A stretch of 46,254 nt of DNA from Alphaproteobacteria bacterium (GTDB lineage: Bacteria > Pseudomonadota > Alphaproteobacteria > Rhizobiales > Devosiaceae). The notes under the pieces were generated by a model. The model saw nothing but the letters and a program-made list of their open reading frames with translations, was not told the origin of the DNA and did not search any database. The stretch lies in assembly GCA_018820005.1 (NCBI GenBank), contig JAHJOS010000511.1, positions 1 through 46,254 of the forward strand. Reading direction: 5' to 3'. The position numbers and the translations under genes are program-made. This document shows positions 1,452 to 28,314 of the stretch, one piece after another; within the stretch, counting starts at the first letter, position 1; every line of letters starts with the position of its first letter.

Positions 1452-1558
1452 ACCCCGACGATCCCTAAAGCGGGCCACTGCTGCCGCAAGAGGCTTAACG
1501 CCCTCATCGGCAGCGTGCTCGCCGGGTCGCCGTTCACCCTGAAAACAGGAGCCCGACC

Positions 1559-2953
1559 ATGGCAACCTATTCCCACAGCATCGGTGGCCAGACCTGGCGT
1601 TTCGACAGCTTGCGCGAGGTGCTGGCCAAGGCCAGTCCGCTGCGTTCTGGCGACTGCCTGGCGGGCGTCGCTGCTACCAGCGACGCCGAACGAGCGGCAG
1701 CGCAGATGACCCTCGCCGATGTGCCGCTCAAGCAGTTTCTACTCGAAGCGGTGATTCCCTATGAGCGCGACGAAGTCACCCGACTGATCATCGACAGCCA
1801 TGACGCCAACGCCTTCGCCCCGGTCAGCCACCTGACCGTAGGCGGCCTGCGCGACTGGCTGCTGGGCGATCATGCCGACGAGGCCAGCCTGCGAGCCCTG
1901 GCTCCCGGCCTGACGCCAGAGATGGCGGCGGCGGTGTCGAAGATCATGCGTGTCCAGGACTTGATACTGGTTGCGCAGAAAATTCGCGTCGTCACCCGGT
2001 TCCGCAACACGATGGGCCTACGCGGCCATATGTCCACCCGCTTGCAACCCAACCATCCCACCGATGATCCCGCCGGCATCGCCGCCAGCACGCTCGATGG
2101 CCTGCTCTACGGCAACGGTGATGCGATGATAGGCATCAACCCGGCCACCGACAGCATGGGCTCGATCTGCACCCTGTTGGAGATGCTCGATGCCGTCATC
2201 CAGCGCTACGAAATACCCACCCAGTCATGCGTGCTGACCCACGTTACGAGCTCCATCGCGGCCATTGAACGCGGCGCGCCGCTGGACTTGGTGTTCCAGT
2301 CCATCGCAGGCACCGAGGCGGCCAACGCCAGCTTCGGTATCAGCCTCAAGGTACTCCAGGAAGGTTACGAGGCCGGCCTGAGCCTCAAGCGCGGCACGCT
2401 CGGCAACAACCTGATGTATTTCGAGACGGGGCAGGGGAGCGCGCTGTCGGCCAACGCCCATCACGATGTCGACCAGCAGACCTGCGAGGCCCGGGCCTAT
2501 GCGGTGGCCCGTCATTTCAATCCCTTCCTGGTCAACACCGTGGTCGGCTTCATCGGCCCGGAGTACCTCTACAACGGCAAGCAAATCATCCGCGCCGGTC
2601 TGGAGGACCACTTCTGCGGCAAGCTGCTCGGCGTGCCAATGGGCTGCGACATCTGCTACACCAACCACGCCGAAGCCGACCAGGACGACATGGACATGCT
2701 GCTGACGCTGCTCGGCACCGCCGGCATCAACTTCATCATGGGTATTCCTGGGTCGGACGACGTGATGCTCAACTACCAGACCACCTCCTTTCACGACGCG
2801 CTCTACGCGCGCAAGGTGCTCGGTCTGCGCGCGGCACCGGAGTTCGAGCAATGGCTGGCGCACATGGGCATCTTCCAGCAGCGCGACGGCCAACTGCGCC
2901 TGGGTAACGAGCTGCCATCCGCCTTCCGCCAGGCCCTGGCACAACTTTCCTGA
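1559..2953 (+). CDS. eutB: Ethanolamine ammonia-lyase large subunit
   Basis: [31 protein letters not shown] and NYQTTSFHD motifs; AGGAG RBS. Confidence 0.97.
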
Positions 2954-2979
2954 TTTCGCTCACTTATGCAGAGGTACGT

Positions 2980-3789
2980 ATGACCGATAACGCCCCTGCC
3001 ACAGAGAACCCGTGGCAACAGTTGCGCCAGCTGACCCCCGCGCGCATCGCGCTGGGCCGTGCCGGCACCAGCCTGCCGACCGGCGCCCAGCTCGATTTCC
3101 AGTTCGCCCATGCCCAGGCACGAGACGCTGTGCACCTGCCATTCGACCACGCAGCCCTGCGTGAAGAACTGCACGCCCGGGGGCATGGCACGCTGCTGCT
3201 GCACAGTGCTGCCAGTGATCGCCACACCTACCTGCAGCGTCCTGACCTGGGCCGGCGTTTGGACGACGCGTCCGCTGCGCTGCTGGATGATCACGTCAAG
3301 CAACACGGGGGCGGCCATGACCTGGCCATCGTCATCGCCGATGGTTTGTCTTCCCTTGCCGTCAGCCGCCACAGCCTGCCTTTTTTAACGCGCGTGCTCG
3401 AACAGGTGACCGCCGAAGGCTGGTCGCTGGCGCCGATCTCGCTCGTTGAGCAGGGCCGCGTGGCGGTGGCCGACGAAGTGGGCGAGCGGCTGGGGGCGAA
3501 GATGACGGTGATCCTGATCGGTGAACGGCCCGGGCTCAGCTCGCCGGACAGCCTCGGCTTGTACTTCACTTGGGCCCCACGCGTTGGCCTCAACGATGCC
3601 TACCGCAACTGCATCTCCAATGTCCGTCTGGAGGGTCTGAGCTACGGCATGGCCGCCTTCCGTCTGATGTACCTGATGCGCGAAGCCTGCCGACGGCAAC
3701 TGTCCGGTGTCGATCTCAAGGACGAGGCCCAGGTGCCTACGCTGGATAAGCAAGGTCCGGGTAATTTCCTGTTGCCAGACCTGGCCTGA
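2980..3789 (+). CDS. eutC: Ethanolamine ammonia-lyase small subunit
   Basis: [20 protein letters not shown] and [15 protein letters not shown] motifs; follows eutB. Confidence 0.97.
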
Positions 3790-4178
3790 AAGAGGATGCA
3801 CCAGTAGGTAGACAGAGAGGATGGAGCGGCGAAGGGCACCGTGAAACGCGGGTTCGCCTTTCGAGCCTCGGAGCCCTGCCGCGGTATAGGGCACCATTGA
3901 CGAGTTCGTGTTGCTCGGACGCACCAGTTTCGTGGCGCTCCAAGCATCGACAAGCCTCGGTTTCGCTCGATGTCCTCACCCCATCGAGACGTACCGTCCG
4001 GAACACGGGCTGCTCCATCCGTATGGAGCGTGATACCGATACATTTACCTCGCAGCGCCCGTGAGCAGATCGCCCGTCTTGGAGTAATGTGGCCGTGCTA
4101 GGCTTGGGCTTGGCTGCGTTGCCTGCCAATACGAACAATTACGCACGGCCCGACTCGGCGCCTGGTTTGGAGTCCCGC

Positions 4179-6092
4179 ATGATCGCGCGCCCACCATCTG
4201 AGCTTCCAAGCGACCTCTCAGCGTTCGTTGCTACGCACTTCTCTGGTCGAGGCTCCAATCCGGATCGGTTGATTGCCGAATCCTGGTACCGCAGCGTCTA
4301 CGAGCACGGGCTCGATCCCGCTAAACCTGCCTCTCATGTTCAGCTTGAGCACCACGAGATCCGCCTGCATCAAGAGGAGCACCATGACTTTCTCGCGATT
4401 GCGAGCCAGGGCGTGGAAGGCCTCGCGCGGCGCCTGAACCCGGCGGGTTTTGCGGTGCTGCTCAGCGATCGGCGCGGTATCACGCTCGACGCGAGACTGC
4501 CAGGGCAGCACAGCCCCTATTCGGACTCGGGGCTGGTGATTGGCAGTTGCTGGGACGAGTCGCTGGTGGGGACCAATGGCATCGGTACCGGGCTGGCCGC
4601 CAGCCAGCCGCTGATCATCCACCGGGACGAGCATTTTCTCTGCAGCAACGCCATGCTGAGTTGCTCGGTGGCACCGCTGTTCGATCCCCAGGGTGCATTG
4701 CTGGGCTGCCTCAATGCCTCGTGTCTCAACAGTGGCGGGCCGAAGCAGGCGCAGTACCTGACGCTGCAGTTGGTAAGCCTGTACGCGCGACTGATCGAGA
4801 ACGCCAGTTTCCGTCAACGCTATGCCAGTTGCGCCATGCTGACCTTGGGCGGCGATTCGGGTGATTTGGGCAACGAGCGTTTGCTGGCAATTGATGGCGC
4901 GGGCTGCATCCTCGGTGCCAATCGGGCGTCCTTTCTATCCGCCGCCCAGGGGATCCCTCTGCTGGGGGCAGCAGTCCAGGATGTCCTGTCCATGTCACTG
5001 GATGAGCTAATCACCCTGACCCAGGGCGGCCAGCGCAGTGCACCCTTGCGCTTAGCCGGGGGAGCGGCACTGGAGGTCACGCTGCGCATGCCGGCCACCG
5101 CCACGCGGCGCTCCAGAAATGAGCGCGGGCTGAGGGTGGTTCCGGCAGAGCCGACGCTCGAGCACCTGGCAGGGGAAGACCCTGACCTGCAACGCTCCGT
5201 CCAGAAGCTGCGCCGCGTGCTTGATCGCGACATCTCGCTGCTGCTGACCGGCGAGACGGGGACCGGCAAGGAAGCGTTTGCGCGGGCGATTCATCAGGCT
5301 AGCGTGCGTGCCAGCGGACCCTTCATCGCGCTCAATTGTGCCGCGATCCCCGAGTCGCTGATCGAGAGCGAGCTGTTCGGCTACCGTGCCGGCACCTTTA
5401 CCGGCGCCAGCCGGCAAGGGATGAAGGGCAAGCTCGAGCAGGCCAATGGCGGGACGCTGTTCCTAGACGAGATCGGTGACATGCCGGCGCACTTGCAGAC
5501 GCGGTTGCTGCGGGTGCTGGCCGAGCGGGAGCTGGTGCCGCTGGGCGCTGCGACTCCAGTCGCGTTGAACGTGCAGCTTGTGTGCGCAACGCACCGCGAC
5601 CTGCCAGTGATGGTCGCTGCGGGGGAGTTTCGTGAGGACCTGTACTATCGACTCAATGGCTTGACGGTGAGGCTACCCGCCTTGCGCGACCGTGCGGATC
5701 GTAGGAGCCTGATTCGTCGTGTCCTGGCACGTGAGGCCGGGGATGAGCATATCGAGCTGACCACCGACGCAATGGAACGCCTGGCCACTTATGGATGGCC
5801 TGGCAATGTGCGCCAACTGATCAACGTGCTGCGCTGTGCCGTCGCGCTCGCCGACGACGGGATGATCGGTCTCGACTGCCTGCCGCCGGAAGTCGTGTCG
5901 GTGCCCGTGGAACGGTCGTCATCGGCACAATCGCTGACGACGACCCGGGATGCAGCCGAGGCGGCCCATTTGCAAACGACACTTGAACAGCACGGTGGCA
6001 ACGTCGCGTCTGCGGCTCGTTCCCTAGGCATCAACCGCGCCACCCTATATCGCAAGCTGCACCGTTACGACCTGGCGGCGCTGCGCAAATGA
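4179..6092 (+). CDS. GAF-domain sigma54-dependent activator (AcoR-like, Fis HTH)
   Basis: GTNGIGT GAF motif, GETGTGKE Walker A, ESELFGY..GTFTGA loop, WPGNVRQL, C-terminal HTH; ATG 4179 chosen for its GGAG RBS. Confidence 0.92.
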   Translation: MIARPPSELPSDLSAFVATHFSGRGSNPDRLIAESWYRSVYEHGLDPAKPASHVQLEHHEIRLHQEEHHDFLAIASQGVEGLARRLNPAGFAVLLSDRRGITLDARLPGQHSPYSDSGLVIGSCWDESLVGTNGIGTGLAASQPLIIHRDEHFLCSNAMLSCSVAPLFDPQGALLGCLNASCLNSGGPKQAQYLTLQLVSLYARLIENASFRQRYASCAMLTLGGDSGDLGNERLLAIDGAGCILGANRASFLSAAQGIPLLGAAVQDVLSMSLDELITLTQGGQRSAPLRLAGGAALEVTLRMPATATRRSRNERGLRVVPAEPTLEHLAGEDPDLQRSVQKLRRVLDRDISLLLTGETGTGKEAFARAIHQASVRASGPFIALNCAAIPESLIESELFGYRAGTFTGASRQGMKGKLEQANGGTLFLDEIGDMPAHLQTRLLRVLAERELVPLGAATPVALNVQLVCATHRDLPVMVAAGEFREDLYYRLNGLTVRLPALRDRADRRSLIRRVLAREAGDEHIELTTDAMERLATYGWPGNVRQLINVLRCAVALADDGMIGLDCLPPEVVSVPVERSSSAQSLTTTRDAAEAAHLQTTLEQHGGNVASAARSLGINRATLYRKLHRYDLAALRK

Positions 6093-6188
6093 TGTCTTGA
6101 CTACGACTCAGTGCTTTCGGTGGCCCGGAGCGCATGGCCGCCCGGTCCACCTAGGATCTGGGGCTGGTCGTCGCTCGACCAAATAACA

Positions 6189-6212
6189 AGAACCCCGCCG
6201 GGGCGGGGTTCT
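6189..6212 (-). terminator. Intrinsic terminator after aldA
   Basis: AGAACCCCGCC/GGCGGGGTTCT stem with a T-rich tail on the minus strand, between convergent genes. Confidence 0.75.
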
Positions 6213-6229
6213 GGATTACCGCAACTCTC

Positions 6230-7666
6230 TCAGCTTTGTAGATACACCGCATGAGTATGGGTGTACTCATAAAGGCCGTGCTTTCCGTCCGCACCGCCGA
6301 TGCCGGACTTGCGCACCCCGGCGTGGTAGCCCTGCATCGCCTCGAAGTTCTCGCGGTTGATGTAGGTCTCGCCGAAATCTAGGCCGGCGGCTGCCTTCAT
6401 CGCGGTAGAGAGGTCGCGCGTGTAGATCGAGGAGGTCAGGCCATACTCGCAGTCGTTGGCCATGGCGATGGCTTCGTCGAGATCGTCGATGATCTGGATT
6501 GGGAGCACCGGGCCAAAGATCTCCTGGCGCATGATTTCCATGTCATGTGAGCAATTGGCAAGGATGGTTGGCTGATAGTGGAAGCCCTGGCCGAGATCGG
6601 CCACGGCACCGCCAGTGATCAGATGAGCGCCTTGGTTCTGGGCGGTCCGTACCATCTGCTCGACCTTGCGCAGGCCGGCTTCGTTGATCAACGGGCCCAT
6701 TTCCACATCCGCTTGGGCAACAGGGTCGCCATAGCGGGTTTCGGCCATGGCCCCGGCGATGCGTTCGATGAACTGATCGGCCACGCCGCGCTGAACATAG
6801 ACGCGCTCTGCGCAGTTGCAGACCTGGCCTGTGTTAATAATTCGGGAGGCGCGAATAGCCGTCACGGCCAGGTCGAGATCGGCGTCGTTCATCACGATGG
6901 CCGGGGCCTTGCCGCCTAGCTCCAGGTTGAGCTTGGTGACGTTGGGCGCTGCGGCGGCCATGATCCGTGAGCCGGTGCCGACGCTGCCGGTAAAGCTGAT
7001 CATGTCGATGCCGCTGCTGGTTGTCAGGGCGCTGCCCACGCCGGCGCCACTGCCGCAGACCACGTTGAACACGCCATTGGGCAGGTCGGTCTCGGCCACC
7101 AGCTTGGCGAATTCGAAGCAGTTGTTCGGCGTTTCCTCGCTGGGCTTGATGACGATGGTGTTGCCCGTGACCAGTGCCGGCGCCATCTTCCGGGCGATCA
7201 GGAAGAACGGGAAGTTCCACGGCAGAATGCCGGCGACCACGCCCAGCGGCTTGCGGAACAGGAAGATGTTCTCGCCAGGGCGGTCGCTGGTGATGATTTC
7301 CCCCTCGATGCGTCTCGCCCACTCGGCCATGTAATCCATGTAATCGGCCGTGAAATTCACCTCCACCAGCGCAAGACTTTGGATCTTGCCTTGCTCTTCG
7401 GTGATGACGCGGGCAAGGCGTTCGGCGTTCTGCCGAATCTTGCTGGCGATGGTGCGCAGATAGCCGGCGCGCTCGTTGGCTGGCTTGTTCGCCCAGTCTT
7501 TCTGCGCCGTGCGGGCGGCCGCGATGGCGCGCTCGACGGTGGCCGAATCGGACTCCGGGACGCGTGAGAGCAGGGCGCCAGTGGCCGGGTTGCGCACGTC
7601 GACGAGGTTGTCGCAGGCGACAAAGCTGCCGTCGATATAGTTCTGATAGGTGATTGCGTCAGTCAT
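6230..7666 (-). CDS. aldA: NAD-dependent aldehyde dehydrogenase, AldA (lactaldehyde/glycolaldehyde) type
   Basis: PWNFP, FTGS, LELGGKAP, GQVCNC and EIFGPV motifs; AldA-like GADGKHGL tail. Confidence 0.88.
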   Translation of the reverse strand: MTDAITYQNYIDGSFVACDNLVDVRNPATGALLSRVPESDSATVERAIAAARTAQKDWANKPANERAGYLRTIASKIRQNAERLARVITEEQGKIQSLALVEVNFTADYMDYMAEWARRIEGEIITSDRPGENIFLFRKPLGVVAGILPWNFPFFLIARKMAPALVTGNTIVIKPSEETPNNCFEFAKLVAETDLPNGVFNVVCGSGAGVGSALTTSSGIDMISFTGSVGTGSRIMAAAAPNVTKLNLELGGKAPAIVMNDADLDLAVTAIRASRIINTGQVCNCAERVYVQRGVADQFIERIAGAMAETRYGDPVAQADVEMGPLINEAGLRKVEQMVRTAQNQGAHLITGGAVADLGQGFHYQPTILANCSHDMEIMRQEIFGPVLPIQIIDDLDEAIAMANDCEYGLTSSIYTRDLSTAMKAAAGLDFGETYINRENFEAMQGYHAGVRKSGIGGADGKHGLYEYTHTHAVYLQS

Positions 7667-7682
7667 GTCGATCTCCTGGTGC

Positions 7683-9839
7683 TCAGTTGCTGGCCGTTTT
7701 TTGGGTGGGCTGCGGCAGGTCGTCCGGGCCGTGTTCGAGACGGTCGTGGGCGCGCTTGATCAGGTACTGGTGGATCTGCTCCATCTGTTCGCGATCGAAC
7801 GCCTCGGCGAAGGAGGGCATGCCATCGGGAATGCGCGCGCCATGGAGGATGCCGAGGAATTGCTTGTGCGTTTCCGGCGTCAGCATGCGCAGATCCGGCA
7901 GCACGCCGCCGCTGACCGCATGAATACCGTGGCACTGCGAGCAGTAGCCGTCATAGAGCTTGGCGCCGGCCTCCACGGTGGCAGCATCAGCCGTCAGGGG
8001 CGGAGGCTTCGGCGCATCCTCACGCGGCGCCGGTTCCTGCAGTTCGGCCGTCCCGCCGAGCTTGTAGGTCAGCACCTGGGCGTAGGGCTGCACCCCGGCG
8101 CGCAGCGAGAGGGCGCCGGCAAAGGTGGAGAACGCACCGCCCCAGCCCGCCATGAAGGTCACGTACTGCTCGCCGTCCACGCTGTAGGTGATGGGTGCGG
8201 CCATCACACCACTGGCAGCGGGTTGCTCCCAGAGCTTGTCGCCATTGTCGGCCGCGTAGGCGATGACCCGCCCGTCGGCGCTGCCTTCGAACACCAGGTT
8301 GCCGGCGGTGCTCAGGGTGCCCCCGTTGAAGATGGTGACGTAGGGCACTTCCCAAGCCTGCTCTTGCTTGACCGGGTCCCAGGCGATCAGCTTGCCGGAC
8401 CAGGTGTCAGCGTATTCGCCCAGGCCTTCAGGATCCTCGGGCATCATCCCGGTCTTCAGACCCAGCTGGTACATGCTCTTGAACTTGTTGCGCGCAGGCG
8501 CATCAGGTACGTGCTCATACCAGGCGGACATGATGTGCGCGGGGATGTAGACCAGCCCGGTGTTCGGGTTATAGGACATCGGGTGCCAGTCATGCGCCCC
8601 CCAGAAGCCCGGCTGGACCAGCTTGGCCTTCTTCTCACCCTTCCAGTAGGCCGCGGCTTCATCATCGACGATGGGGCGACCGGTCTTCAGATCGACGCCC
8701 TTGGCCCAGTTGATCGGCACGATGTTTTCGGCCGAGAGCAGCTCGCCAGTGGCGCGATCGATGACGTAGAAGAAGCCGTTCTTCGGTGCCTGCATCAGCA
8801 CCTTGCGCTGTTTGCCCTCGATTTCCAGATCAGCCAGGATCATGTGCTGGGTGGCGGTGTAATCCCAGGCATCGCCCGGCGTGGTCTGGTAGTGCCAGAC
8901 GTATTCGCCGGTGTCGGCGTTGACCGCGACGATGGAAGACAGGAACAGGTTGTCGCCCTTGCCCTCGCTGCGCCAGATCGGATCCCACAGCGAGCCGTTG
9001 CCGACACCGATGTAGAGCAGGTTCAGCTCCGGGTCGTAGGCGAAGGAGTCCCAGGCGGTACCGCCGCCGCCCTGCTCGACGAACGCGCGGCCATGCCAGG
9101 TCTTCTTGGCGATGTCCATGCCCTTGCCTTCGGCCGGCTTGTCCGGGTCGCCGGGTACGGTGAAGAAGCGCCAGGCCTGATCGCCGGTTTCGGCATCGTA
9201 GGCGGTGACGTAGCCGCGCACGCCGAACTCGGCGCCGCCGTTGCCGATCACCACCTTGCCATTGACCACTCGCGGCGCGCCGGTGATGGAATAGCTGCGC
9301 TCCTTGTCGTAGCGCGTATCCACCGACCAAACGCGCTCGCCGGTCTTGGCGTCGATGGCTTCCAGGCGGCCATCGAGCACTCCGACATAGACCTTGCCTT
9401 TCCACACTGCAACGCCGCGGTTGATTGCATCGCAGCAGGCTTCACCGGCGCGGGAGCGGTCGGATTTGGGGTCGTATTTCCAGATTTCCTTGCCGGTGCG
9501 CGCGTCGAGCGCATAGACGATGGAGAAGGGGCCGGTGGTGTACATCACGCCGTCGACCACGATGGGGGTGGCTTCCACGCCGCGGTCGATGTCGAGCTTG
9601 TAGCTCCAGGCCAGGCCGAGATCGTCGACGTTGGCGTCGGTGATCTTCTTCAGCGGGCTGTAGCGCTGCTCGCCGTAGTCGCGGCCGTGACTCATCCAGT
9701 TGCCGGGCTCGGCGTCGGCGTTGGCGATGCGCTTGCCGTCCACATCGGCGGCGTGCAGCGGCAGGGACAGCAGGGCGGCAAGGCTGGCGCCAAGCAGGGC
9801 GGTGGGCCGTCGGCTCAAACAGGGATCGAATTGATTCAT
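7683..9839 (-). CDS. Type II PQQ quinohemoprotein alcohol dehydrogenase (ADH IIG/QgdA-like)
   Basis: Signal peptide, vicinal CC (EACCD), PQQ propeller motifs, WDYTA metal site, C-terminal heme c motif CSQCH; start set at MNQFD downstream of the sigma54 promoter. Confidence 0.93.
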   Translation of the reverse strand: MNQFDPCLSRRPTALLGASLAALLSLPLHAADVDGKRIANADAEPGNWMSHGRDYGEQRYSPLKKITDANVDDLGLAWSYKLDIDRGVEATPIVVDGVMYTTGPFSIVYALDARTGKEIWKYDPKSDRSRAGEACCDAINRGVAVWKGKVYVGVLDGRLEAIDAKTGERVWSVDTRYDKERSYSITGAPRVVNGKVVIGNGGAEFGVRGYVTAYDAETGDQAWRFFTVPGDPDKPAEGKGMDIAKKTWHGRAFVEQGGGGTAWDSFAYDPELNLLYIGVGNGSLWDPIWRSEGKGDNLFLSSIVAVNADTGEYVWHYQTTPGDAWDYTATQHMILADLEIEGKQRKVLMQAPKNGFFYVIDRATGELLSAENIVPINWAKGVDLKTGRPIVDDEAAAYWKGEKKAKLVQPGFWGAHDWHPMSYNPNTGLVYIPAHIMSAWYEHVPDAPARNKFKSMYQLGLKTGMMPEDPEGLGEYADTWSGKLIAWDPVKQEQAWEVPYVTIFNGGTLSTAGNLVFEGSADGRVIAYAADNGDKLWEQPAASGVMAAPITYSVDGEQYVTFMAGWGGAFSTFAGALSLRAGVQPYAQVLTYKLGGTAELQEPAPREDAPKPPPLTADAATVEAGAKLYDGYCSQCHGIHAVSGGVLPDLRMLTPETHKQFLGILHGARIPDGMPSFAEAFDREQMEQIHQYLIKRAHDRLEHGPDDLPQPTQKTASN

Positions 9840-9896
9840 CGCAGGCTCTCTCTTGTTATTGGTCTGGCCGCCCCATGGGGCAGGCCTTTCAGAGAG

Positions 9897-9912
9897 AGCA
9901 ACCGCTGTGCCA
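9897..9912 (-). promoter_or_regulatory. sigma54 -24/-12 promoter of the ADH-aldA operon
   Basis: Minus strand TGGCAC-AGCGG-TTGCT matches the RpoN consensus. Confidence 0.85.
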
Positions 9913-9987
9913 GCCATACAAATATGGCCGCAAAGCCAGTCGTGGCGAGGCCTGGCGCAATCACAGTCCCCCACAGTTAAAGCGGTC

Positions 9988-10040
9988 TGTCGCAACCGAA
10001 GCGACGCACGGCTGCGACACCTGTCGCGTCGCTGCGACAG
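9988..10040. promoter_or_regulatory. Putative enhancer (UAS) for the sigma54 activator
   Basis: Repeated TGTCGC/GCGACA half-sites including the palindrome CTGTCGC-N6-GCGACAG (10021-10040), about 75-130 bp upstream of the -24 box. Confidence 0.6.
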
Positions 10041-10386
10041 AGACGCTGGGCCCGCAGCCCTGGCAATCGGGGGCTGGATCTAGAGGTAGCGATTCAGAAC
10101 GGCCTGCCAAGGCAGCAGGACTGGCGGCCGGCGGGCAGTTTGGGCGGTGCAAACGACAAAGGGTGATGTCTCAAGGCTCGCTTGGCATGTGCGTTGCCTG
10201 GATGACGCGGAGCCACATGCAGGGTTTTGCGCATCGGATTCGTTCTGTAGTTTAAAAACGCGTTCCGGTTCGCCTGGGCCTAAGAGTGCCCAATTGCTTC
10301 ATCTTGAGGGCGTCGGTAGCTCTCTAGCCGTTCGCCAGGCCACACAGGCCGGCGGCAACAAAGCCATACAACAATAAGGTTTAACC

Positions 10387-12387
10387 ATGTATCGATTGTT
10401 TCTTGCCGGATCGCTCTCGTTGGCAACCGGACCCGTGCTCGCGCAGACAAGTGAACCGCTTACGCTCGACCCCTTGGTGGTGAGTTCGCCGCGGGCAGAG
10501 TCCGACTGGTTTACCTTGCCGATGGCGGTGTCTTCCGTGACGGCACAGGACCACCCGGGCGAACAGTTGCTCACCCTCGATAGCCTGCTGGGGCCTGTCC
10601 CGGGCGTTTTCTCGCAGAGCCGCTACAACCTGGCCCAAGGCATGCGCTTGTCGATTCGCGGCTTCGGTTCCCGTTCCAGTTTTGGCGTTCGCGGCGTGCG
10701 GGTATTGGTCGATGGGGTTCCCCTGACCATGCCGGACGGGCAGACCGAAATGGATGGGCTGGACACCTCACTGGTCGAGCGCATCGAGGTGATTCGCGGC
10801 CCCTCATCGACCATCTACGGCAATGCCGCCGGCGGCGTCCTGGCGATCGAGACGCGACAGCCGGGCAACACGCCGCGCACTCAGGTTGAAGTGACAGGCG
10901 GCGAACTGGGCTATCGCCGCATGCGCGCGGAGACCAGCGGCAGCGCCGGGTCGCTGGGCGCATTGCTCGCGCTCAACGCCACACAGCTCGATGGCTACCG
11001 CACGCACGGGACTGCCGAAACCAACCACCTCACCGGCAAGCTGCGTTGGCTGGGGGAGGGCGGCACGCTTGGCCTGACCCTGCATGCGATCGACAACCGA
11101 GCCGAAGATCCCGGTGGGCTGAACCTGGATCAGGTCCGGGTCGACCGATCCCAGGCGCGGCCACAAAGCCTTCAGTTCGATTCAGACGAGACCGTCCAGC
11201 AGCAACGCCTTTCGCTGGTCTGGGATGGGCAGGCCGCAGGCGGTGATACCTACCAGTTGCGCAGTTACTACGGCCAGCGCGAGTTCAGCAACCGTCTCCC
11301 GCTGCGCGCCAATGGTCAGACGGCCTATGACCGCTGGTTCGCCGGGGTGGGTGCTCAGCGGACCTTTAACCGGGAGTTGGCGGGCCTGCCTCATCAACTC
11401 ACCGTCGGGCTGGACCTGGAGAGCCAGCGCGATGAGCGCTCGCGCAACGACAACCTGCCTGGCGGCATCACCGGCGCCCTCACTCAACGCCAGCGCGAAA
11501 CGGCGGACAGCCGGGGTGCGTTTATCGAGGATCAGGTAAACCTGGGCGATGCCTGGCTGCTCACCGCAGGCGTGCGCTATGACAGCGTGCGACTCGAGGC
11601 GAAGGACCGCTATCTGAGCGACGGCGATGCCTCGGGCGAGCGCAATCTCGAAGACTGGAACTACAGCCTGGGGCTGAGCCGGCAACTGGACAGCCATCAT
11701 GTCGCGTACGTGCGTTACGCGACATCGTTCGAGACACCTACGATCAACGAAGTGGCGAACCCAAGCGGGGGCGGCTTCAATCCATCGCTGGGCCCGGCGC
11801 GGGCGGTCAACCGCGAAATAGGCTTCAAGGGCGAGCATCCCGGATTGCGCTACGAAGCGGTGTTCTACAGCATGCGCATCGAAGACGAGTTGGTCCCGGA
11901 AGTCGACGGACGCACCTTCTACACCAACGCGGGCCGCTCCAGCCGCGACGGCGTCGAGCTCAGCGGGGACTGGTTGGTGGGGCGCCATTGGCGTTTGACC
12001 GGTGCCTGGAGTTACAACCGCTATCGTTTCGACCAGTTCCAGGGCTACGACGGCAACCGCATCCCGGGCATTCCCGAGCAGAGCCTGTTCGCCGAGGTCA
12101 GCTATGACCGCGACGACTGGTATGCACGGGTCAACGTCAATGCCTACGGCCATCAGTACGCGGACAATGCCAACCTCGACCGCGTGCCCGGCTATGCGGT
12201 AACCAACGCCCGCCTGGGCTGGCGACTGGCGTGGGGCGATCAGCGGTGGGAGCCCTATATCGGCGTCGATAACCTGCTGGACCGGGACTACTACGACAAC
12301 CTGCGTATCAACGACAACTTCGGTCGCTACTACGAGCCTGCTCCAGGCCGCACGATCTATGCAGGAGCCAAACTGACTTTCGAGTGA
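10387..12387 (+). CDS. TonB-dependent receptor, PqqU/YncD-like (probable PQQ uptake)
   Basis: Signal peptide; plug FGVRGVRVLVDGVPLTMPDGQ..IEVIRGP..YGNAAGG and C-terminal YYEPAPGR resemble YncD/PqqU; divergent from a PQQ enzyme. Confidence 0.8.
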   Translation: MYRLFLAGSLSLATGPVLAQTSEPLTLDPLVVSSPRAESDWFTLPMAVSSVTAQDHPGEQLLTLDSLLGPVPGVFSQSRYNLAQGMRLSIRGFGSRSSFGVRGVRVLVDGVPLTMPDGQTEMDGLDTSLVERIEVIRGPSSTIYGNAAGGVLAIETRQPGNTPRTQVEVTGGELGYRRMRAETSGSAGSLGALLALNATQLDGYRTHGTAETNHLTGKLRWLGEGGTLGLTLHAIDNRAEDPGGLNLDQVRVDRSQARPQSLQFDSDETVQQQRLSLVWDGQAAGGDTYQLRSYYGQREFSNRLPLRANGQTAYDRWFAGVGAQRTFNRELAGLPHQLTVGLDLESQRDERSRNDNLPGGITGALTQRQRETADSRGAFIEDQVNLGDAWLLTAGVRYDSVRLEAKDRYLSDGDASGERNLEDWNYSLGLSRQLDSHHVAYVRYATSFETPTINEVANPSGGGFNPSLGPARAVNREIGFKGEHPGLRYEAVFYSMRIEDELVPEVDGRTFYTNAGRSSRDGVELSGDWLVGRHWRLTGAWSYNRYRFDQFQGYDGNRIPGIPEQSLFAEVSYDRDDWYARVNVNAYGHQYADNANLDRVPGYAVTNARLGWRLAWGDQRWEPYIGVDNLLDRDYYDNLRINDNFGRYYEPAPGRTIYAGAKLTFE

Positions 12388-12542
12388 CGACGTTCACCGA
12401 TGCGCTGTTGGGGCCCGACGCTGCGGTTTTGCGAGGATGGATGTGCGCTACCTGGCATATCTGCCAGCTAGTTTTCCGAGCCAAACCCCTTAGGCTGGTG
12501 ATGAGGCATCGCGCCTCATCAACGTGAAAGAGGGGTATCGCT

Positions 12543-12683
12543 ATGTTCAAGCTTCTTCAAAAGCGCATTTCCAAACGAAACGTGGCCGATCGGGCCGTCG
12601 TCATCAAGAATGCCAAAGAGAAAATCAACGGCGTGCCGGGCGGCGCGATCGTCGAGGGCAGCTATGGCGTCTGGTCCCGTTGA
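12543..12683 (+). CDS. Lasso peptide precursor A (46 aa; leader MFKLLQKRISKRNVADRAVVIKNAKEKIN, core GVPGGAIVEGSYGVWSR)
   Basis: Hand-translated ORF with GAGGGG RBS; Gly1 and Glu9 ring partners; stop overlaps the cyclase start (TGATG). Confidence 0.85.
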   Translation: MFKLLQKRISKRNVADRAVVIKNAKEKINGVPGGAIVEGSYGVWSR

Positions 12684-14134
12684 TGGACCTTGGGTGGCGG
12701 CTCCGCCGTCACCCAGCGCTTACCGCCTTAATGACTCAGATTTTCAACACAGAGCATGGATCCGCCGCGGCCCCGACGCCGCTGGAGATCGTCCCGGGTC
12801 TTCAAGTACGGTTTCAACGCGGTACGACCGTTCTGACGAACGCGGGCCCCGAGGTCTTCTACATTCGAGCCGTATCATCAGGTTTCAGCATCTGGACCTC
12901 CCTGAAGCAGCTGTTGAAGTCGACACGACCGGCTCTCAACCTCAGCTACCTGCGCCATCATTTGCGATTCGGTGAGACGGTAACCCATGCCACTGCATGG
13001 GGCGACGTATATCAGCTGATCCCAAACGCGGCCCTAACGCTCAGTGCAGATGGCTGCTCATGGCACTTCGAACCTTGGAGTGGAGAAGGGTGCCAGAACG
13101 CATCGCTTGATCATCCCGCGATACTGTTGAAGCAGGCCATCCCCGGCTCGACGGCGCCAGTTGTACTCGAACTGTCCGGCGGTACCGATTCCACCGCCAT
13201 CGCCTACGCGCTTGCTGGCCGAAACGATGTGTTGGCCATCACCTGGGCTGATCCGCTAGCCCCGGACGGCAGCGACGTCGGACATGCCAAGCGTATCGCC
13301 AGCAAGCTTGGTTTCGAACACCGAATTGCAATCCTGTCCCCTGACGCTCTGTTCGCGCTTCCGTCGCAGTTCGAGCCAGACAGGCCCAGCGTATCGCTGT
13401 TCATGATGGCGGAGCGGGACAGGTTCGTTCGTGGCGCGACCGGAGGACACACCAACGGCGTCGTGGTCAACGGCCACGGCGGCGATCACATCTTCCTCGA
13501 TCCGCCAAGCCCGGTCCCCATTGTAGATCTCCTGTCCTGTGGTCGTTTTCGAGAAGCCCTGCGGTACTACCGGACCCTCGTCCAATTCCATGGCGGGGGA
13601 GTGCTTGCCCCTTTGCGCTATTGCCACGTGGGACGAGGCATCGGTCGCAGCGCATTGACCCTCAGACCGGGAAAGCGCCTGCATCACCGACTGGTCCGGC
13701 AGGCCTGCTACGAAAACGCGATCTGGAGCAGGCTCGGTGTGCCGTACAAAGTCATCCATCCGTTCACCTGTCCCGCGATGCTTAGCTACGCGCTGTCGAT
13801 CGCCCCGCACGAGCATGTCGGTCAGGCGCAATCCAGACAGCCGTTCCGAAAGGCCATGAACGACTACCACCAGACCGAGGATTTCGGCCGGGTTAGCAAG
13901 GGCCACCTTACCGGCATATTTCAGCGAGCCATCCAGCTGAAGCAGGACTCATTGGCGGCGCTGTTGGAGCAGGGCATCGGTGCGAGCTACGGCATGTACA
14001 GCGTCGACGATATGCGCAGGGCACTGGAAGCGGCCGCGCTTGGCGCTACTGACATCCATCCACGGCTTATGAACGCGCTGTCGCTGGAGCTTTTCATGCA
14101 GCACTGGTCTCGCCTTTCGGGAGTGGCTCGATGA
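12683..14134 (+). CDS. Lasso peptide cyclase C (asparagine synthetase-like)
   Basis: PP-loop ELSGGTDS, NGHGGDHIF, HPF and R.SKG motifs; no N-terminal catalytic Cys; ATG 12683 coupled to the precursor stop. Confidence 0.88.
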   Translation: MDLGWRLRRHPALTALMTQIFNTEHGSAAAPTPLEIVPGLQVRFQRGTTVLTNAGPEVFYIRAVSSGFSIWTSLKQLLKSTRPALNLSYLRHHLRFGETVTHATAWGDVYQLIPNAALTLSADGCSWHFEPWSGEGCQNASLDHPAILLKQAIPGSTAPVVLELSGGTDSTAIAYALAGRNDVLAITWADPLAPDGSDVGHAKRIASKLGFEHRIAILSPDALFALPSQFEPDRPSVSLFMMAERDRFVRGATGGHTNGVVVNGHGGDHIFLDPPSPVPIVDLLSCGRFREALRYYRTLVQFHGGGVLAPLRYCHVGRGIGRSALTLRPGKRLHHRLVRQACYENAIWSRLGVPYKVIHPFTCPAMLSYALSIAPHEHVGQAQSRQPFRKAMNDYHQTEDFGRVSKGHLTGIFQRAIQLKQDSLAALLEQGIGASYGMYSVDDMRRALEAAALGATDIHPRLMNALSLELFMQHWSRLSGVAR

Positions 14135-14808
14135 CACACAGATGCCTAAGGTTCGCGCCATGGATCTTCCACGCATTGGCCGATGGTGAGCTGGTGCTGC
14201 TTGATGCCCGCTCGAACGAATTCGTCCTGTTCGACCGCGATGCATCGCGGGAACTCGTCGACGCCGTCGAGGGGCGAGCCATGAGCCCGCTTGTCGAGCG
14301 GCTGCTTGTCGAAGGAAGGCTGCAGCACGCCTCGTCGACGCCCAAGCTCAATCGGAGCCACGTGCCCGGAATTGATGATTTCACCTGGAGCGAGTCGGTC
14401 CGCTACAAGGCACGTCATCATGCCTCTTGTCCCTCTGGCCGCGAGGTGCTTGCGGCTGGCCTGACCCTTGCGAAGATGTGCGTTCTGCTCAAATGCGTGT
14501 CGCTTTTCCGTCTGCTAAAAAGCGGCCGGAACAGGCCCGTCAGCCAGGGCCCGGCAAAGGCAACGCTCGACCGAGAAATCTGCGCCCTGGTCCGTGCCGC
14601 ACGGTGGCTCCCATGCAAAGTCGCCTGCCTTGAATTCTCTCTCGCTCTACGCGAACGCCTGGCACGACACGGCGTCAATGCAACCGTCGAGATTGGCGTG
14701 CAGAAGTACAGCTTCATGGCACATGCCTGGGTGGAGGTAGATGGCCAGCCGTTAGGTGAGCCGGACCATGTCGCCCGATCTCTCCACCGCCTGCGGGGTA
14801 CCGAATGA
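14131..14808 (+). CDS. Lasso peptide B protein (fused RRE + leader peptidase)
   Basis: N-terminal PqqD-like ELVLLDARSNEF; C-terminal transglutaminase-like CLEFSLAL...AHAWVE; ATGA overlap with C. Confidence 0.9.
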   Translation: MTHRCLRFAPWIFHALADGELVLLDARSNEFVLFDRDASRELVDAVEGRAMSPLVERLLVEGRLQHASSTPKLNRSHVPGIDDFTWSESVRYKARHHASCPSGREVLAAGLTLAKMCVLLKCVSLFRLLKSGRNRPVSQGPAKATLDREICALVRAARWLPCKVACLEFSLALRERLARHGVNATVEIGVQKYSFMAHAWVEVDGQPLGEPDHVARSLHRLRGTE

Positions 14809-16484
14809 CGCAAGCGCTGCAGCAATACCGCCGAGCCCTGACCTTGGCCCGAACCTACTACCCCAAGGCCTTTACCTACTTCGCGATTGCCTCTGTACTC
14901 CTGCTGGCATTGGCGCTACTCAATGCCACCGTTCCGGTGCTGCTGCGCGAAGCAACCAACCGGCTTGCATCAGGTGATGCCATGAGCATCATCCTGGTCA
15001 CCGCAGCGGCCTACGCACTGTGCTGGACCGGTGCGCAGGTGCTGGAGTGGACCAAGAACATCCTCTCGGCCGCGGTGCTGGTGCGCTGCGACGCGGCCTT
15101 CTACCGCGCGTTCTTCGACCACCTGCTCAAGGTGCCACAGGCCGAGCTGCGCAAGCTCGACCAGGGTGTCCTGGTTGCCGATGCGCAACGTTCCAAGGGT
15201 GCCTTCAGTGCGCTGACCAGCACGCTGTTCTGGATTGTGCTGCCGACACTGATCGAGCTTCTGTTTGTCTTCGCGGTACTGGCAACGTTGATCAACGTTG
15301 CCTTCGCGGCGTCCTTCATCATGGCGATCGTCGGGCTGGTTGGGCTTTCGGTGCTGCTGTCACGCAAGGCCAAGGGCATCCACCAGCGGATCATGGAATC
15401 GAACAACCAGGTGATGTCGCATTTCACCGAGCGGATGCGCCTGGTCGAAGAGATCAAACTCAACAATGCCCAGCCCCTGGAGCAACAGCGCTTCGGCACC
15501 AAGGTCGGCGGCTTCATCGACAGCGTGTCCGTCGGCAATCTGCGCATCGGCCTGCTCATGCTGCTTCAGGTCACCCTGGTCGGTGCGCTGCTACTGGCCT
15601 CGACGCTCTACGTTGTCAGCGAAGTTGCGAAGGGCACCTACACGGTGGGTGACTTCGTCATGATCAACGGCTACGTCATGCAACTGACGATGCGCCTGGC
15701 CCTGCTGGCGAGCGTACTGATCGAGCTTCGTAACCATCTGGTCCTGCTGGACAGGGGCTTTCATTACCTGGACATGGCGCCGGAGCCACAGGGCAGACAG
15801 GCGCCCAACATGAATCAAGAGGTTCTGTTCGAGCTGAAGAGCGTGTCCTACCACGCCGAGGGACGGTCGATACTAAACAACATCGACCTGCAGATCCGTG
15901 AGGGGCATACCTACGCAATCACCGGTCCGTCGGGCGCCGGCAAGACAACACTGCTGCGCCTGCTGGTTGGACTGATCCAGCCGGAGGAGGGCACGGTTAG
16001 GGTGTTCGGCGCGGATACCAGGGAGCTGGACCGCACCGCTTTGCTCGACGTCGTTTCGGTCGTCACCCAGCACCCGCTGCTGATCGCCGGCAGCGTGGCT
16101 GACAACGTCCGCTACGGCGCAAAGCGAAATCTGAACGACGACCAACTCGACAGCCTCCTCGGCCAGCTCGGACTCGACGCCCACGCCATCGACAATTCAA
16201 CACTGAACAAGCACGTCGGCTTCGATGCGGCTGCCGTGTCGGGTGGCGAGAAACAGCGCATCGCTATCGCCCGGGCATTGGCGCGTGGCACACCGACGAT
16301 ACTGCTGGATGAGCCTACCTCGGCCCTGGATGTCGCGAGCGAAGAGCGCACCATCGATGTGCTCAAGGCCAACGCGCGGACGCTAGTGCTGATCACGCAT
16401 CGCCCGTCGGTTATCGTCAAGGCCGACTATGTCATCCACCTCGACGGCGACGGGACGGTGCGCATTAATTCGTCGCAATCCTAG
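14805..16484 (+). CDS. ABC exporter (TMD+NBD), lasso peptide export/self-immunity protein D
   Basis: N-terminal TM domain, GPSGAGKT, VSGGEKQR, LLDEPTSALD; ATGA overlap with B. Confidence 0.9.
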   Translation: MTQALQQYRRALTLARTYYPKAFTYFAIASVLLLALALLNATVPVLLREATNRLASGDAMSIILVTAAAYALCWTGAQVLEWTKNILSAAVLVRCDAAFYRAFFDHLLKVPQAELRKLDQGVLVADAQRSKGAFSALTSTLFWIVLPTLIELLFVFAVLATLINVAFAASFIMAIVGLVGLSVLLSRKAKGIHQRIMESNNQVMSHFTERMRLVEEIKLNNAQPLEQQRFGTKVGGFIDSVSVGNLRIGLLMLLQVTLVGALLLASTLYVVSEVAKGTYTVGDFVMINGYVMQLTMRLALLASVLIELRNHLVLLDRGFHYLDMAPEPQGRQAPNMNQEVLFELKSVSYHAEGRSILNNIDLQIREGHTYAITGPSGAGKTTLLRLLVGLIQPEEGTVRVFGADTRELDRTALLDVVSVVTQHPLLIAGSVADNVRYGAKRNLNDDQLDSLLGQLGLDAHAIDNSTLNKHVGFDAAAVSGGEKQRIAIARALARGTPTILLDEPTSALDVASEERTIDVLKANARTLVLITHRPSVIVKADYVIHLDGDGTVRINSSQS

Positions 16485-24221: not shown

Positions 24222-24940
24222 CTAGATCTGACCCAAGGCTGCTGCCGAAGCCACAGCCGCCGCGATGTTTATTGCATCGAGCTTGCGCATGGCGTTCTCG
24301 TGATGAAAGCGCACCGTCCGCGCACTCACACCCAGGATCAGCGCCACGTCGGCCTGGCTCTTGCCGCGCGAGGCCCAGAGCAGGCATTGGCGTTCACGGC
24401 AGGTCAGGGGCAAGACACCACACGCGCCTGACAGCTCTCCGACTCGCAGGTGCAGCGTCGTCGCCAGCCCTGACAGCAGGTAGGCGTCGCGTATGCCGAT
24501 TTCTCGCGCACCGACGTTATCGGTGCGTTGGCTCACATTAAGTGCAGCCAGCTGCTCGCCCCGCACGTGCGCGGGGACGGTCGCGCCCCGGCAGGTGTCA
24601 ATCCGGTGAAGACGCGCGCATGACAAAAAGGCCAGCTCATCAGATCCGAGCGATACCGGACTCAGTTCTGACCACAGGAAGGGAAGGGGGCAGCCACGCA
24701 ACCGCTGCATGAACGGATCAATGCACCCATAGCCGTTGGACCGATACAGCACCTGCCAGCGCTCGTCGCAATTGGAGACAAGCACCGGCGAGCCCTTGAG
24801 CACGCAACCCGTCACGCTGATAAGGCGTACTGATCGATACCCAGCCGGGCGAACAGCGCACCCAACACCCGATGCACCTCATCAAACCCATCCGCCTCGC
24901 ACAGAGCATGCGTGGCACGCCTGATCAGATCGAGCTCCAC
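24222..24940 (-). pseudogene. LuxR solo (autoinducer-binding domain + HTH) with a 1-nt frameshift
   Basis: GGAGG RBS and GTG at 24940; N-terminal frame stops near 24812; span is 719 nt, one short of 240 codons; W..Y..DP..W ligand residues and LT.RE HTH lie in the second frame. Confidence 0.75.
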
Positions 24941-25409: not shown

Positions 25410-25544
25410 GGCACACCTCCGAAGAGGCGACACAAAACGAAGCTGATGAATCATGGTGGGGCGCGGGCGTAAAAAGGAAGTATCGCATGTTGCTGGTGCT
25501 CCTTGGTTCGATTAAGGAGCCGCCTCTGCCGTTGCTACGCGGTA

Positions 25545-25627
25545 ATGGAGGCGGACCGCACGGGGGTAGCAAACCGGGAACCAAGGGAACCGGCCAGGCC
25601 GAAGCCTGCCCCGCACGGCCCGCCATA
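25545..25627 (-). ncRNA. C4-type antisense RNA
   Basis: Closing stem ATGGCGGGCCGTGCGGG/CCCGTGCGGTCCGCC..CAT, CAGGC-TTCG-GCCTG hairpin, loop CCTTGGTT and linker TTGCTAC; complementary targets on both flanks. Confidence 0.75.
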
Positions 25628-25680
25628 GCAAAGCAGTAGCTTGGTGCTAAGCACCAACTACCAGCTATGACGCTGCCGCG

Positions 25681-26143: not shown

Positions 26144-26653
26144 TCAAAGGCTCGCCGACACCTGCCCGCAAATACACGAAAGAACGGGGGTTACACTTTG
26201 AGCTTTTCCGGACTCCAAAAGATCTTTTAGTTTGGATATAACAATACTTACAGAATCACCTTTATTTATCGGTGCTTCGCTGCTTTTGGCTGTATCTATC
26301 TCTGCGACTTGCGCATCCGCCATGGTTATAATGGCAATTTTTTCCTGATTCTTTCCCTTAACCAATATTTCGGTGGAGCCTATAATTTTTTCAAGCTCTT
26401 CTGGACATTCGTCAGTAGCATAAAAGTCGTTTGCAGGTACGAATTCGACCTTTTCGACTCCCTGGTCACTGAGGTGTTGACGCAGCTGGGTACTTGTCCA
26501 TCCTATTTGGACACCCTCTATTTCGCCGCTTTGCAAATCTTCTTGCTTGTAAAACAATTTCTTCGAAAATTTTCCCACCCCAGTTTCAGGGCAAGCTGCG
26601 GAGATGCTCGGCACTAATAGGGCGAGCAGGATTGCAATTTTATTTATCGCCAT
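26144..26653 (-). CDS. Putative immunity protein (exported) of orphan cassette 3
   Basis: Overlaps the end of the toxin tip; N-terminal signal peptide; AT-rich; 3' end possibly truncated. Confidence 0.65.
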
Positions 26654-27200
26654 GATTTTGGCCCCAGGCTCCAGGAATATTTGGTGCAGTCCCACCGGCA
26701 TTCTCGATTATGTTATCAGCCGCTGTATTGGAATTGTTGCCTGTTGGAGGAATTCGATAGGGCCCCTGAGAGTAGTTATTTCCCGAACCAGTTACTGCCT
26801 TATCAAAATCACTCTGAGTGGTTCCAGCAGGTGGCCAAATAATTCTGTTTGTATCATTAGCCCCGGGATTTTCAAATGCATTTCTGTCGTTATTGTAAGT
26901 ATCACTTTCGTTCTGGGTCATTGGCCCATTAGGTTTCACAGGGCCGGTGCCTCCGCCAGCTAGTGAGTACTGGCTATCAATCACTTTCTTCGAATTCCCG
27001 CACTTATCGAACTCCCAATGCCAAACGATAACGGCGCAATGAACTGGTTTAGCCATACCAGGAGGTAGCAATGAAAGCGGCCGACAAGTCATGGTGACTT
27101 CGAGTCCGTATTGGTCAATATATTTGAGTGGGTTCCCCATCGCATACCCGTAGGTATTCAGTCCCCCCTTAAGTCCAATCGGATCGCTTTCGACGTATCG
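26640..27200 (-). pseudogene. Orphan Rhs toxin tip, cassette 3
   Basis: [33 protein letters not shown], then a unique C-terminal domain with HC, Y..P..GNNSNT motifs; no proper start. Confidence 0.85.
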
Positions 27201-27312
27201 TCCGCCTACCTGGCGTCAAAGCTACAAACCCACACAGCCAAAGCCCCGCCCGCCTGCCTTTCAAGCCAGCACAAATCCACAAAGCAGCACGCTAACCAGC
27301 CACACCCCCCAA
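27175..27312 (-). repeat. Cassette leader repeat, copy A
   Basis: About 80% identical by eye alignment to 29202-29335; fused to the RYVESDPIG codons. Confidence 0.85.
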
Positions 27313-27334
27313 GGAAGGTGGACGAGCACCTTCC

Positions 27335-27616
27335 TCATGCAACCGCAAGCACAATGACGAAGCAAGACAGTGAAATGATGGAAGTTACTGCCGCTCGAAT
27401 GTAGGCCCTGACAATTTGACCCGCTTCAAGCGACATGCCTTTTGATTCCGGGTTCTTATACAGAATAAATTGCAAAACAACTGACGAGTAAAATTCATAC
27501 CCCTTTATGTTTGCAGAGCCGAGTGCGTCCTCTAATTCAGGCTTGATGCTTAAGCACTTAATCAGTCCGTATATCCCTGCACATAGCGCAGCGGTTAAAA
27601 TGGCACCTAAAATCAT
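27335..27616 (-). CDS. Putative membrane immunity protein of orphan cassette 2
   Basis: 93 aa with hydrophobic N- and C-terminal segments; starts 2 nt after the toxin stop. Confidence 0.65.
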   Translation of the reverse strand: MILGAILTAALCAGIYGLIKCLSIKPELEDALGSANIKGYEFYSSVVLQFILYKNPESKGMSLEAGQIVRAYIRAAVTSIISLSCFVIVLAVA

Positions 27617-27618
27617 GA

Positions 27619-28227
27619 TTACTCCAGTGGTATATTCAAGCCTACGCCAGATCCGGTGACTTTAGCACCGATAGCTGGTCCGACTCCTACACGGCCGGAA
27701 ACGCCATTTGTCCCTTGAGTGGAAGATACATCAACGCTGATTGGTCCATATATCGGCACAGATAATCCAGCAGACGTCCCTACTGTAGTCATTTTTGAAT
27801 TTACTGAGCCTGCCGATCCGGACACTCCAGCCGTTACGGAAACGCCTATGCCTATGCCCGGAGCAATCGAGAAACTCAGATTATTCTGGCTTGGTGAGAC
27901 ACTCAAATCGCCTGAAATAACTACCGGGACTGGCCCGAGTTGCCCCCAAACTCCAAGTTTAACGTCCACGTTAGATAAGCCTCGCGTCGAGCCTGGAAGC
28001 GCAGAAGCCAAGCCCGATGGGCAGTATCCTTCAGGATATGGGATGCCTCCGTTGCAGATCGTTTGCCCATACTCATCCTTCCAACATTTGCTTAAGCCAT
28101 AGGGATCTACAAAGATCAAAGGGTTTCCCCCAACATATCCATATGTGTTCAAGCCACCCGCCAGCCCGATCGGATCACTTTCGACATAGCGCCCCGTCTC
28201 GGGGTCGTAATCGCGGAAGTAGTTGTA
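27619..28227 (-). pseudogene. Orphan Rhs toxin tip, cassette 2
   Basis: [45 protein letters not shown], then a Gly/Val/Ser-rich beta-like domain. Confidence 0.85.
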
Positions 28228-28288
28228 AACTAATTCACATCAGCACCTCTGACTCCCGAGCTACCTGGTCGCATCGGCAGCACATTAC

Positions 28289-28312
28289 ACGCTGCGCTCA
28301 ACCCATCCTACG
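28289..28312 (-). repeat. Partial REP-like element
   Basis: Minus strand CGTAGGATGGGTTGAGCGCAGCG resembles GTAG-type pseudomonad REPs but lacks the second arm. Confidence 0.35.
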
Positions 28313-28314
28313 AG

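Follow-up and report, generated by a model that had tools for sequence, protein, structure and literature searches.

A predicted class II lasso peptide cluster with a candidate LuxR switch on a contig of probable Stutzerimonas origin

What peptide would be produced by four adjacent genes at positions 12543 to 16484 of a contig assigned to the Devosiaceae, and what would switch them on? The genes are located in a 46,254-nt stretch of DNA (contig JAHJOS010000511.1 of assembly GCA_018820005.1, positions 1 to 46,254, forward strand), which as a whole is referred to as the window. Judged from the sequence, the genes are a genuine class II lasso peptide cluster whose family is apparently uncharacterised and whose leader carries the rare Ile at position -2, Ile(-2). 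With moderate confidence, a class II lasso peptide of 17 residues, probably with antibacterial activity, is predicted to be produced and secreted by the cluster, which is likely switched on by a linked LuxR protein binding the N-acyl homoserine lactones (AHLs) of other bacteria. The switch, LuxR together with a lux-box-like palindrome, is well supported by the DNA as a candidate; the antibacterial activity is likely by analogy.

The genes are arranged in the order A-C-B-D, encoding the precursor, the cyclase, a peptidase fused to a RiPP recognition element (RRE; RiPP, a peptide made by the ribosome and modified after translation) and an ATP-binding cassette (ABC) exporter (Table 1). The cyclase C matched Asn_synthase (PF00733) above the cut-off, and the SGGxDS motif expected of an ATP-dependent cyclase was invariant. 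The structural model of C was moderate (predicted local distance difference test, pLDDT, 64) and matched folds of the asparagine synthetase family with an E value of 4e-10. B matched NF033537 (lasso_biosyn_B2) with 72.7 bits at a cut-off of 33, and C166 and H198, expected of a leader peptidase, were invariant. With a profile built from 12 B proteins, positions 6-71 matched TfuB1, a lasso RRE, at an E value of 0.004. In the model of B (pLDDT 89) the N-terminus was built of strands followed by helices, and the best fold match, TbiB1, was weak (E 0.055). The scan of flanking open reading frames (ORFs) gave no match to an isopeptidase family. By these domain matches, the lasso cluster described in an earlier note, which had been made from the sequence alone, is real and, within the ORFs scanned, free of isopeptidase as stated there.

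The 46-aa ORF regarded in the same note as an unannotated precursor was also found. It was lacking in the ORF track of that note's reader, whereas a 46-aa protein from this contig is present in NCBI/nr and its relatives are named 'hypothetical protein'. The 17-residue core, GVPGGAIVEGSYGVWSR, was identical in 24 of the 26 distinct 46-aa precursors retrieved, and Ile(-2) was present in all 26. In six non-independent pairwise comparisons, 23 synonymous and 6 non-synonymous codon changes were counted in the core, and 30 and 48, respectively, in the leader. Because synonymous changes exceed non-synonymous ones in the core and not in the leader, the ORF is, by its codons, not a chance one, and purifying selection acts on the core.

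In 13 aligned precursors G1, E9 and V14 were invariant, position 15 was either Trp or Tyr, and position 12 was variable. The cleavage site was fixed by the relatives, since the Thr(-2) of leaders from E. coli, Pantoea and Rhizobium plasmids falls on the Ile of the window. Similarly, the invariance of G1 and E9 fixes the Gly1-Glu9 ring, in agreement with the Gly1 and the Asp/Glu at position 7-9 of lasso peptides. The core has no Cys and thus no disulfide, as in class II. The class II reading, the core and the ring proposed earlier are supported by this alignment. Of the plugs suggested with them, Trp15 would be the best candidate because Trp or Tyr is conserved at position 15, whereas Tyr12 was given up because its position varies. 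The monoisotopic mass of the cyclised core, previously calculated as about 1671.84 Da, was recomputed as 1671.837 Da.

The Thr of lasso leaders at position -2 was replaced by Ile, a rare known exception, and the replacement was paralleled in the RRE. The comparison included 16 rows with an assigned precursor (L014, for which no precursor was found, was left out). The RRE column held Phe in eight of eight rows with Ile or Val at -2 and Tyr in seven of eight rows with Thr(-2), the exception being L013, whose precursor is uncertain. The tree of these rows needs three Ile/Val changes, and its well-supported branches are also compatible with a single origin. According to the available part of PMC10368454, Ile(-2) has been validated once, in BsfA, and the RRE tyrosine is suspected to engage the Thr(-2) of the leader. 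The pairing of Tyr/Phe with the -2 residue may already be described in Kretsch 2023. With alleles pairing Ile(-2) with Phe and Thr(-2) with Tyr, nature would offer a test of the S2-pocket role proposed for the RRE tyrosine.

Table 1. Features of the cluster, of its putative control region and of the exporter-only remnants. Positions are those of the window unless a locus (L) is named; G denotes a genome.
Feature	Position	Strand	Remarks
lux-box-like 20-bp palindrome	12450..12469	.	ACCTGGCATATCTGCCAGCT; left edge of DNA shared with relatives
-10-like hexamer TAGGCT	12491..12496	+	21 nt after box; putative promoter
Hairpin in presumed mRNA 5' leader	12500..12520	+	folding z -2.35; similar inverted repeats in relatives
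Ribosome-binding site GAGGGG of precursor	12530..12535	+	read from sequence; GAGGG conserved in relatives
Precursor A, 46 aa	12543..12683	+	leader 12543-12629 (29 aa, Ile at -2), core 12630-12680 = GVPGGAIVEGSYGVWSR
Stem-loop between precursor and cyclase	12691..12715	+	folding z -2.9 in window
Lasso cyclase C, 467 aa	12731..14134	+	SGGxDS PP-loop 149-154; NGHGGDHIF 247-255
Fused RRE-peptidase B, 225 aa	14131..14808	+	RRE about 6-71 with Phe31; Cys166, His198, Glu210
ABC exporter D, 559 aa	14805..16484	+	Walker A 374, signature 479, Walker B 500, H-loop 530
AHL-type LuxR (Autoind_bind + GerE)	24222..24940	-	frameshifted near 24821-24842; 7.7 kb downstream of cluster
Exporter-only remnant of G710 under box	L062:7801-9803		
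Exporter-only remnant of G339 under box	L059		

For the cyclase, the most likely start is position 12731, which follows the A-C hairpin. All close homologues begin at an ATG matching this position, and the database protein from the contig consists of 467 aa. Translational coupling had been proposed for the whole operon. The TGATG at 12681-12685 was in the cyclase frame in only 3 of 12 loci, the offsets being 47, 48, 49 or 72 nt, and with the conserved start behind the hairpin the coupling of precursor and cyclase was rejected as unsupported. The ATGA overlaps of C with B (14131-14134) and of B with D (14805-14808), also named in the proposal, are present. The hairpin itself, a strong one, was present in five of five loci folded, with z values of -1.9 to -5.6 in four relatives having different sequences.

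Upstream of the precursor, the DNA shared with relatives starts at 12443-12450, at the palindrome; in 12 of 12 close loci the mobile unit has its left edge there. The palindrome pattern matched once in the window, and any match was obtained in 1 of 100 shuffles; two further matches, in unrelated places, were detected in G251 and G252, and the remaining 3.65 Mb of the bin contained six occurrences of a loose pattern. In the Stutzerimonas-Marinomonas clade all 12 loci had the box 71-81 nt upstream of the precursor, whereas the 7 distant family members had none. At exactly 21 nt downstream of it, all 11 Stutzerimonas-type loci had the hexamer TAGGCT, and Marinomonas had TAATTT at an equal gap; the sigma-70 scan missed the TAGGCT hexamer. 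With the box centre near -43 (about -43.5 if TAGGCT is the -10 element), the region is a predicted promoter with a candidate LuxR site. Lux boxes of class II are centred near -42.5. The palindrome is presumably not a sigma-54 site, its spacing being off by one, by eye, from the consensus.

The other component of the putative switch is the AHL-type LuxR. Intact 239-aa alleles exist at 89-91% identity, and in seven intact LuxR proteins W62, Y66, D75, P76, W90, G119, E183, L187 and G193 were invariant, the nine residues listed as invariant in AHL-type LuxR proteins in the accessible part of PMC4338825. The best solved relative was QscR (E 4e-28). LuxR was convergent behind D in L005, L008, L009 and L016, and near A or C in at least 10 named assemblies, as judged by accession or locus-tag neighbours. 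LuxR of this clade was absent from the distant family members without a box (5 records tested). In Marinomonas rhizomae luxI and luxR flank D, with luxI on the strand of D and 57 nt behind it. The LuxR of this species is not a solo, whereas G339, G710 and G740 carry LuxR with no luxI found and thus LuxR solos. In viral contigs no cyclase, LuxR matches only at the level of the helix-turn-helix, and one box match without a cluster were observed.

An independent test of the switch was obtained with three genomes chosen by LuxR alone and searched for the box. Two of the three carried it, upstream of D. In G710 and G339 the box was found once per genome and D follows it directly, since A, C and all or nearly all of B have been lost; the G710 remnant keeps the 21-nt gap, the hexamer TAAGCT and an intact D.

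AHL-bound LuxR would quite probably activate the operon as a class II activator, given that palindrome and -10-like hexamer are separated by a fixed distance and that the co-travelling LuxR has its nine canonical residues. The hairpin after A would keep the mRNA of the precursor more abundant than that of the enzyme genes. It is very probable that B would bind the leader and cut after ...KIN, RRE Phe31 taking Ile(-2), and that C would link Gly1 to Glu9 around the tail with ATP, yielding a peptide of 1671.84 Da with Trp15 as the likely plug. With less assurance, D is expected to export the peptide and to protect the producer, the target probably not being the RNA polymerase site of the microcin J25 (MccJ25) type. 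RNA polymerase inhibitors like MccJ25 have an aromatic residue right after the ring acid and a C-terminal Tyr-Gly. The core has Gly10 after the ring residue Glu9 and a C-terminus of Trp-Ser-Arg, so that the product, judged by its residues, would not be among these inhibitors. Stutzerimonas would eavesdrop on the AHLs of other bacteria, while Marinomonas rhizomae has its own luxI behind D. A wider scenario is advanced tentatively: AHL-less Stutzerimonas may carry a mobile cassette in which an eavesdropping LuxR solo fires a lasso antibiotic that belongs to an uncharacterised family and hits a new target, and the cassette may stem from a self-inducing luxI-luxR-lasso operon, erode to exporter-only immune non-producers and hold a natural Thr-to-Ile(-2)/Tyr-to-Phe switch.

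Several observations weigh against an AHL-switched antibacterial cluster. The luxR of the window is frameshifted, and this allele was seen again in run X1, which may however be the sample from which the contig came; the cluster may therefore be silent here, and its expression in this contig is likely low or off unless another luxR copy exists in the true host genome. LuxR was detected in 3 of 67 Stutzerimonas species genomes, the cyclase in none and luxI in one (a genome other than the LuxR carriers), so LuxR is not tied to the whole cluster. In L004 and L006 no luxR was found within 2.6 kb downstream of D, the stretch examined. The cyclase is split in several strains (L002; forms of 243+223 aa and 342 aa), the D of G339 is frameshifted, and G740 carries LuxR but has lost the box and D. 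The box pattern was originally derived from the very loci in which it was counted, and because these are related to one another the counts lack independence. The ratio of non-synonymous to synonymous substitution rates (dN/dS) was 0.14-0.18 for orphan D and 0.12-0.17 for cluster D, showing no difference. The exporter-only alleles fit self-protection by possible immune non-producers, which dN/dS cannot separate from decay. On the supporting side, four short contigs from one RNA library covered parts of A, C and B, with most of the stretch uncovered and DNA carry-over possible; the DNA run of the same study covered nothing of the cluster, so that no ranking by expression can be given.

The frequent frameshifts and deletions would suit a cluster that is decaying island cargo, with luxR as a mere neighbour in the element and the palindrome bound by another factor or acting as a terminator-like or recombination site. 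LuxR is found without the cluster, and the palindrome lies at the homology edge and was also listed as terminator-like in a scan. We consider this decidedly unlikely: the box, the 21-nt spacing and LuxR are kept between hosts of 61% (Stutzerimonas) and 39% (Marinomonas) GC content, whose proteins are only 39-61% identical, and they stay together while the flanking cargo changes between loci; the purifying selection on the core also argues against decay. LuxR might, on the other hand, control the cluster and the lasso peptide be made, but act as a signal or receptor ligand instead of an antibiotic, with D serving for export only. The core is almost invariant across hosts, the cyclised core has no net charge, and the pattern of the RNA polymerase inhibitors is missing. 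Self-protection, however, accounts more easily for the exporter-only remnants that follow the box in G710 and G339, and D homologues confer resistance in the MccJ25 and capistruin systems in what is available of PMC6963729. In Marinomonas the neighbouring sbmA, present in 64 of 64 genomes, belongs to the core genes; it was rejected as a cluster gene and is not an importer borne by the cluster. The signalling role thus appears rather unlikely. Finally, the enzymes could act on another register or give a branched-cyclic, unthreaded product. The leader has neither Thr(-2) nor a YxxPxL motif, the ring has nine residues with small neighbours to Trp15, and the cyclase is short with a model of moderate quality. 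The family alignment, which fixes G1 and E9, the validated Ile(-2) of BsfA (PMC10368454, as far as available) and the frequency of cyclases of 449-496 aa in the A-C-B-D family make such a product highly improbable.

The combination of AHL, LuxR and box would be a specific, testable switch for lasso peptides and would predict a way of activating the cluster in cultured strains.

The contig is most likely a binning contaminant: Stutzerimonas DNA mis-binned in a Devosia-like assembly, where it is the longest of 731 contigs (G000:C484). Positions 1500-12391 were 94% identical to the Stutzerimonas genomes G710 and G740, the core-DNA match stopping at 12391, and the window proteins grouped with Stutzerimonas proteins among protein clusters and database neighbours. 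A protein from another contig of the same assembly grouped with Devosia, and the RecA of the remaining assembly is presumably alphaproteobacterial. Positions 6300-12300 were absent at high identity from 12 of 12 same-genus genomes. By tetranucleotide distance alone the contig was not clearly set apart from its bin. The own-genome and own-genus/own-family searches gave 0/108 and 0/242, which is uninformative on the host because the bin is Devosia-like; the order-wide search with the TonB receptor as the query gave 0/301. Near-identical DNA, with at least half of the sampled words, was present in 11 sequencing runs from groundwater, sediment, freshwater and terrestrial samples. A weak luxI-like match in the bin turned out to be a FeeM-type protein.

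The core block at 168-12387 includes eutH/B/C, a sigma-54 activator, an aldehyde dehydrogenase, a pyrroloquinoline quinone (PQQ) alcohol dehydrogenase and a PqqU-like TonB receptor (10387-12387). The receptor, lying inside the core DNA 94% identical in G710 and G740, was ruled out as a cluster member. Adjoining luxR, a C4 antisense RNA (RF01695, 77.7 bits) was found at 25544-25630 (- strand); the stretch around it is common to L005, L008, L009, G339, G710 and G740 and marks an integrative element. Low-GC ORFs without Pfam matches are located at 26144-28776. On the minus strand, positions 29488-39419 encode a tyrosine integrase, a DnaG/Toprim primase (1055 aa) and two RHS-repeat ORFs, and positions 40514-42379 a Schlafen group 3 helicase-domain protein, possibly an anti-phage gene, with GNAT acetyltransferases close by. 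Runs X2 and X3 had small insertions relative to the window at 16724, 18147 (29 nt) and 22965, and the neighbouring ORFs may vary by strain.

Close clusters were found in ten metagenome loci, and the sister cluster is that of Marinomonas rhizomae (clade support 100/99). At L035:267-2716 (G279) Marinomonas has another lasso cluster, a distant one, whose leader has Ile(-2) and whose RRE has Phe. Distant relatives were present in 32 matched records, on plasmids of Escherichia (23), Pantoea (4), Acinetobacter (2), Salmonella (1) and Rhizobium (1), and the lasso core family, which would be new, extends accordingly to plasmids of E. coli, Salmonella and Acinetobacter. With this plasmid A-C-B-D family (NCBI 'lasso peptide biosynthesis B2'; E. 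coli, Salmonella, Pantoea, Rhizobium, Acinetobacter) the window shares the G1-x7-E9...V14-[WY]15 core and the short cyclase with NGHGGDH. In contrast, the cyclases and peptidases of the family are only about 25-30% identical to those of the window, several members have Thr(-2) and a long two-Cys tail, and neither the box nor a linked LuxR of the window's clade is present. The two-Cys-tail clusters are L022:2298-6409, L025:3052-7151, L023:3764-7894 and L024:3988-8405 (plasmids of E. coli, 23 records, Salmonella, Pantoea and Rhizobium), and their cores were not found in paper searches. The Acinetobacter indicus plasmid precursor (L036:4405-4530) has Val(-2), a core close to that of the window and the exporter upstream. 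In Paludibacterium a lasso cluster is followed by a GT2 glycosyltransferase (L015:5623-6627, L019:9488-10492), the product possibly being a glycosylated lasso peptide.

The statement of the earlier note that the core matches no lasso peptide recognised by its reader (MccJ25, capistruin, klebsidin, acinetodin, citrocin, ubonodin) agreed with the full-text searches, which found no printed copy. The nine-residue starts of the window core and of the relatives' cores were not found in the full-text papers searched or in the readable LassoESM supplements, and the precursor profile gave no lasso match against PDB chains of at least 20 aa. Literature listings pairing lasso peptides with P. stutzeri, Stutzerimonas or LuxR, including the part of PMC13742089 available, held no description of such a cluster, and the word 'lasso' is absent from the main text and readable supplements of PMC5872303 and from PMC10134790. 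A prior bioinformatic listing of the core is possible, RODEO tables lying outside the literature search.

Among the known systems, microcin J25 (mcjABCD) and capistruin (capABCD) share with the window a precursor, a fused RRE-peptidase, an Asn-synthetase-like cyclase, an ABC exporter and the lack of an isopeptidase, and capistruin also the 9-residue ring (PMC6963729, in the part available). General background on MccJ25 is given in PMC8498205. Judging from its genes, the cluster is predicted to work like the mcj and cap clusters. It differs from them in the A-C-B-D order, the short cyclase, Ile(-2), the unrelated core, and the dedicated LuxR and box. In the same part of that 2019 review, lasso peptide gene regulation is called poorly understood, and for capistruin the local regulator is given as unknown, with ScmR acting as a repressor. 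The bsf cluster of Bradymonas sediminis shares the natural Ile at leader -2; it has a split B1/B2, a kinase, a YxxPxL leader and RRE Tyr, whereas the window has a fused B, no kinase, no YxxPxL and Phe (available part of PMC10368454). With the LuxR-linked clusters and solos of bactobolin (BtaR2), malleilactone (MalR) and QscR, as presented in PMC5872303 and PMC4338825, the window shares an AHL-type LuxR beside a biosynthetic cluster, a 20-bp palindrome as candidate box, and forms with and without luxI. What distinguishes the window from these systems is the cargo, a predicted lasso RiPP.

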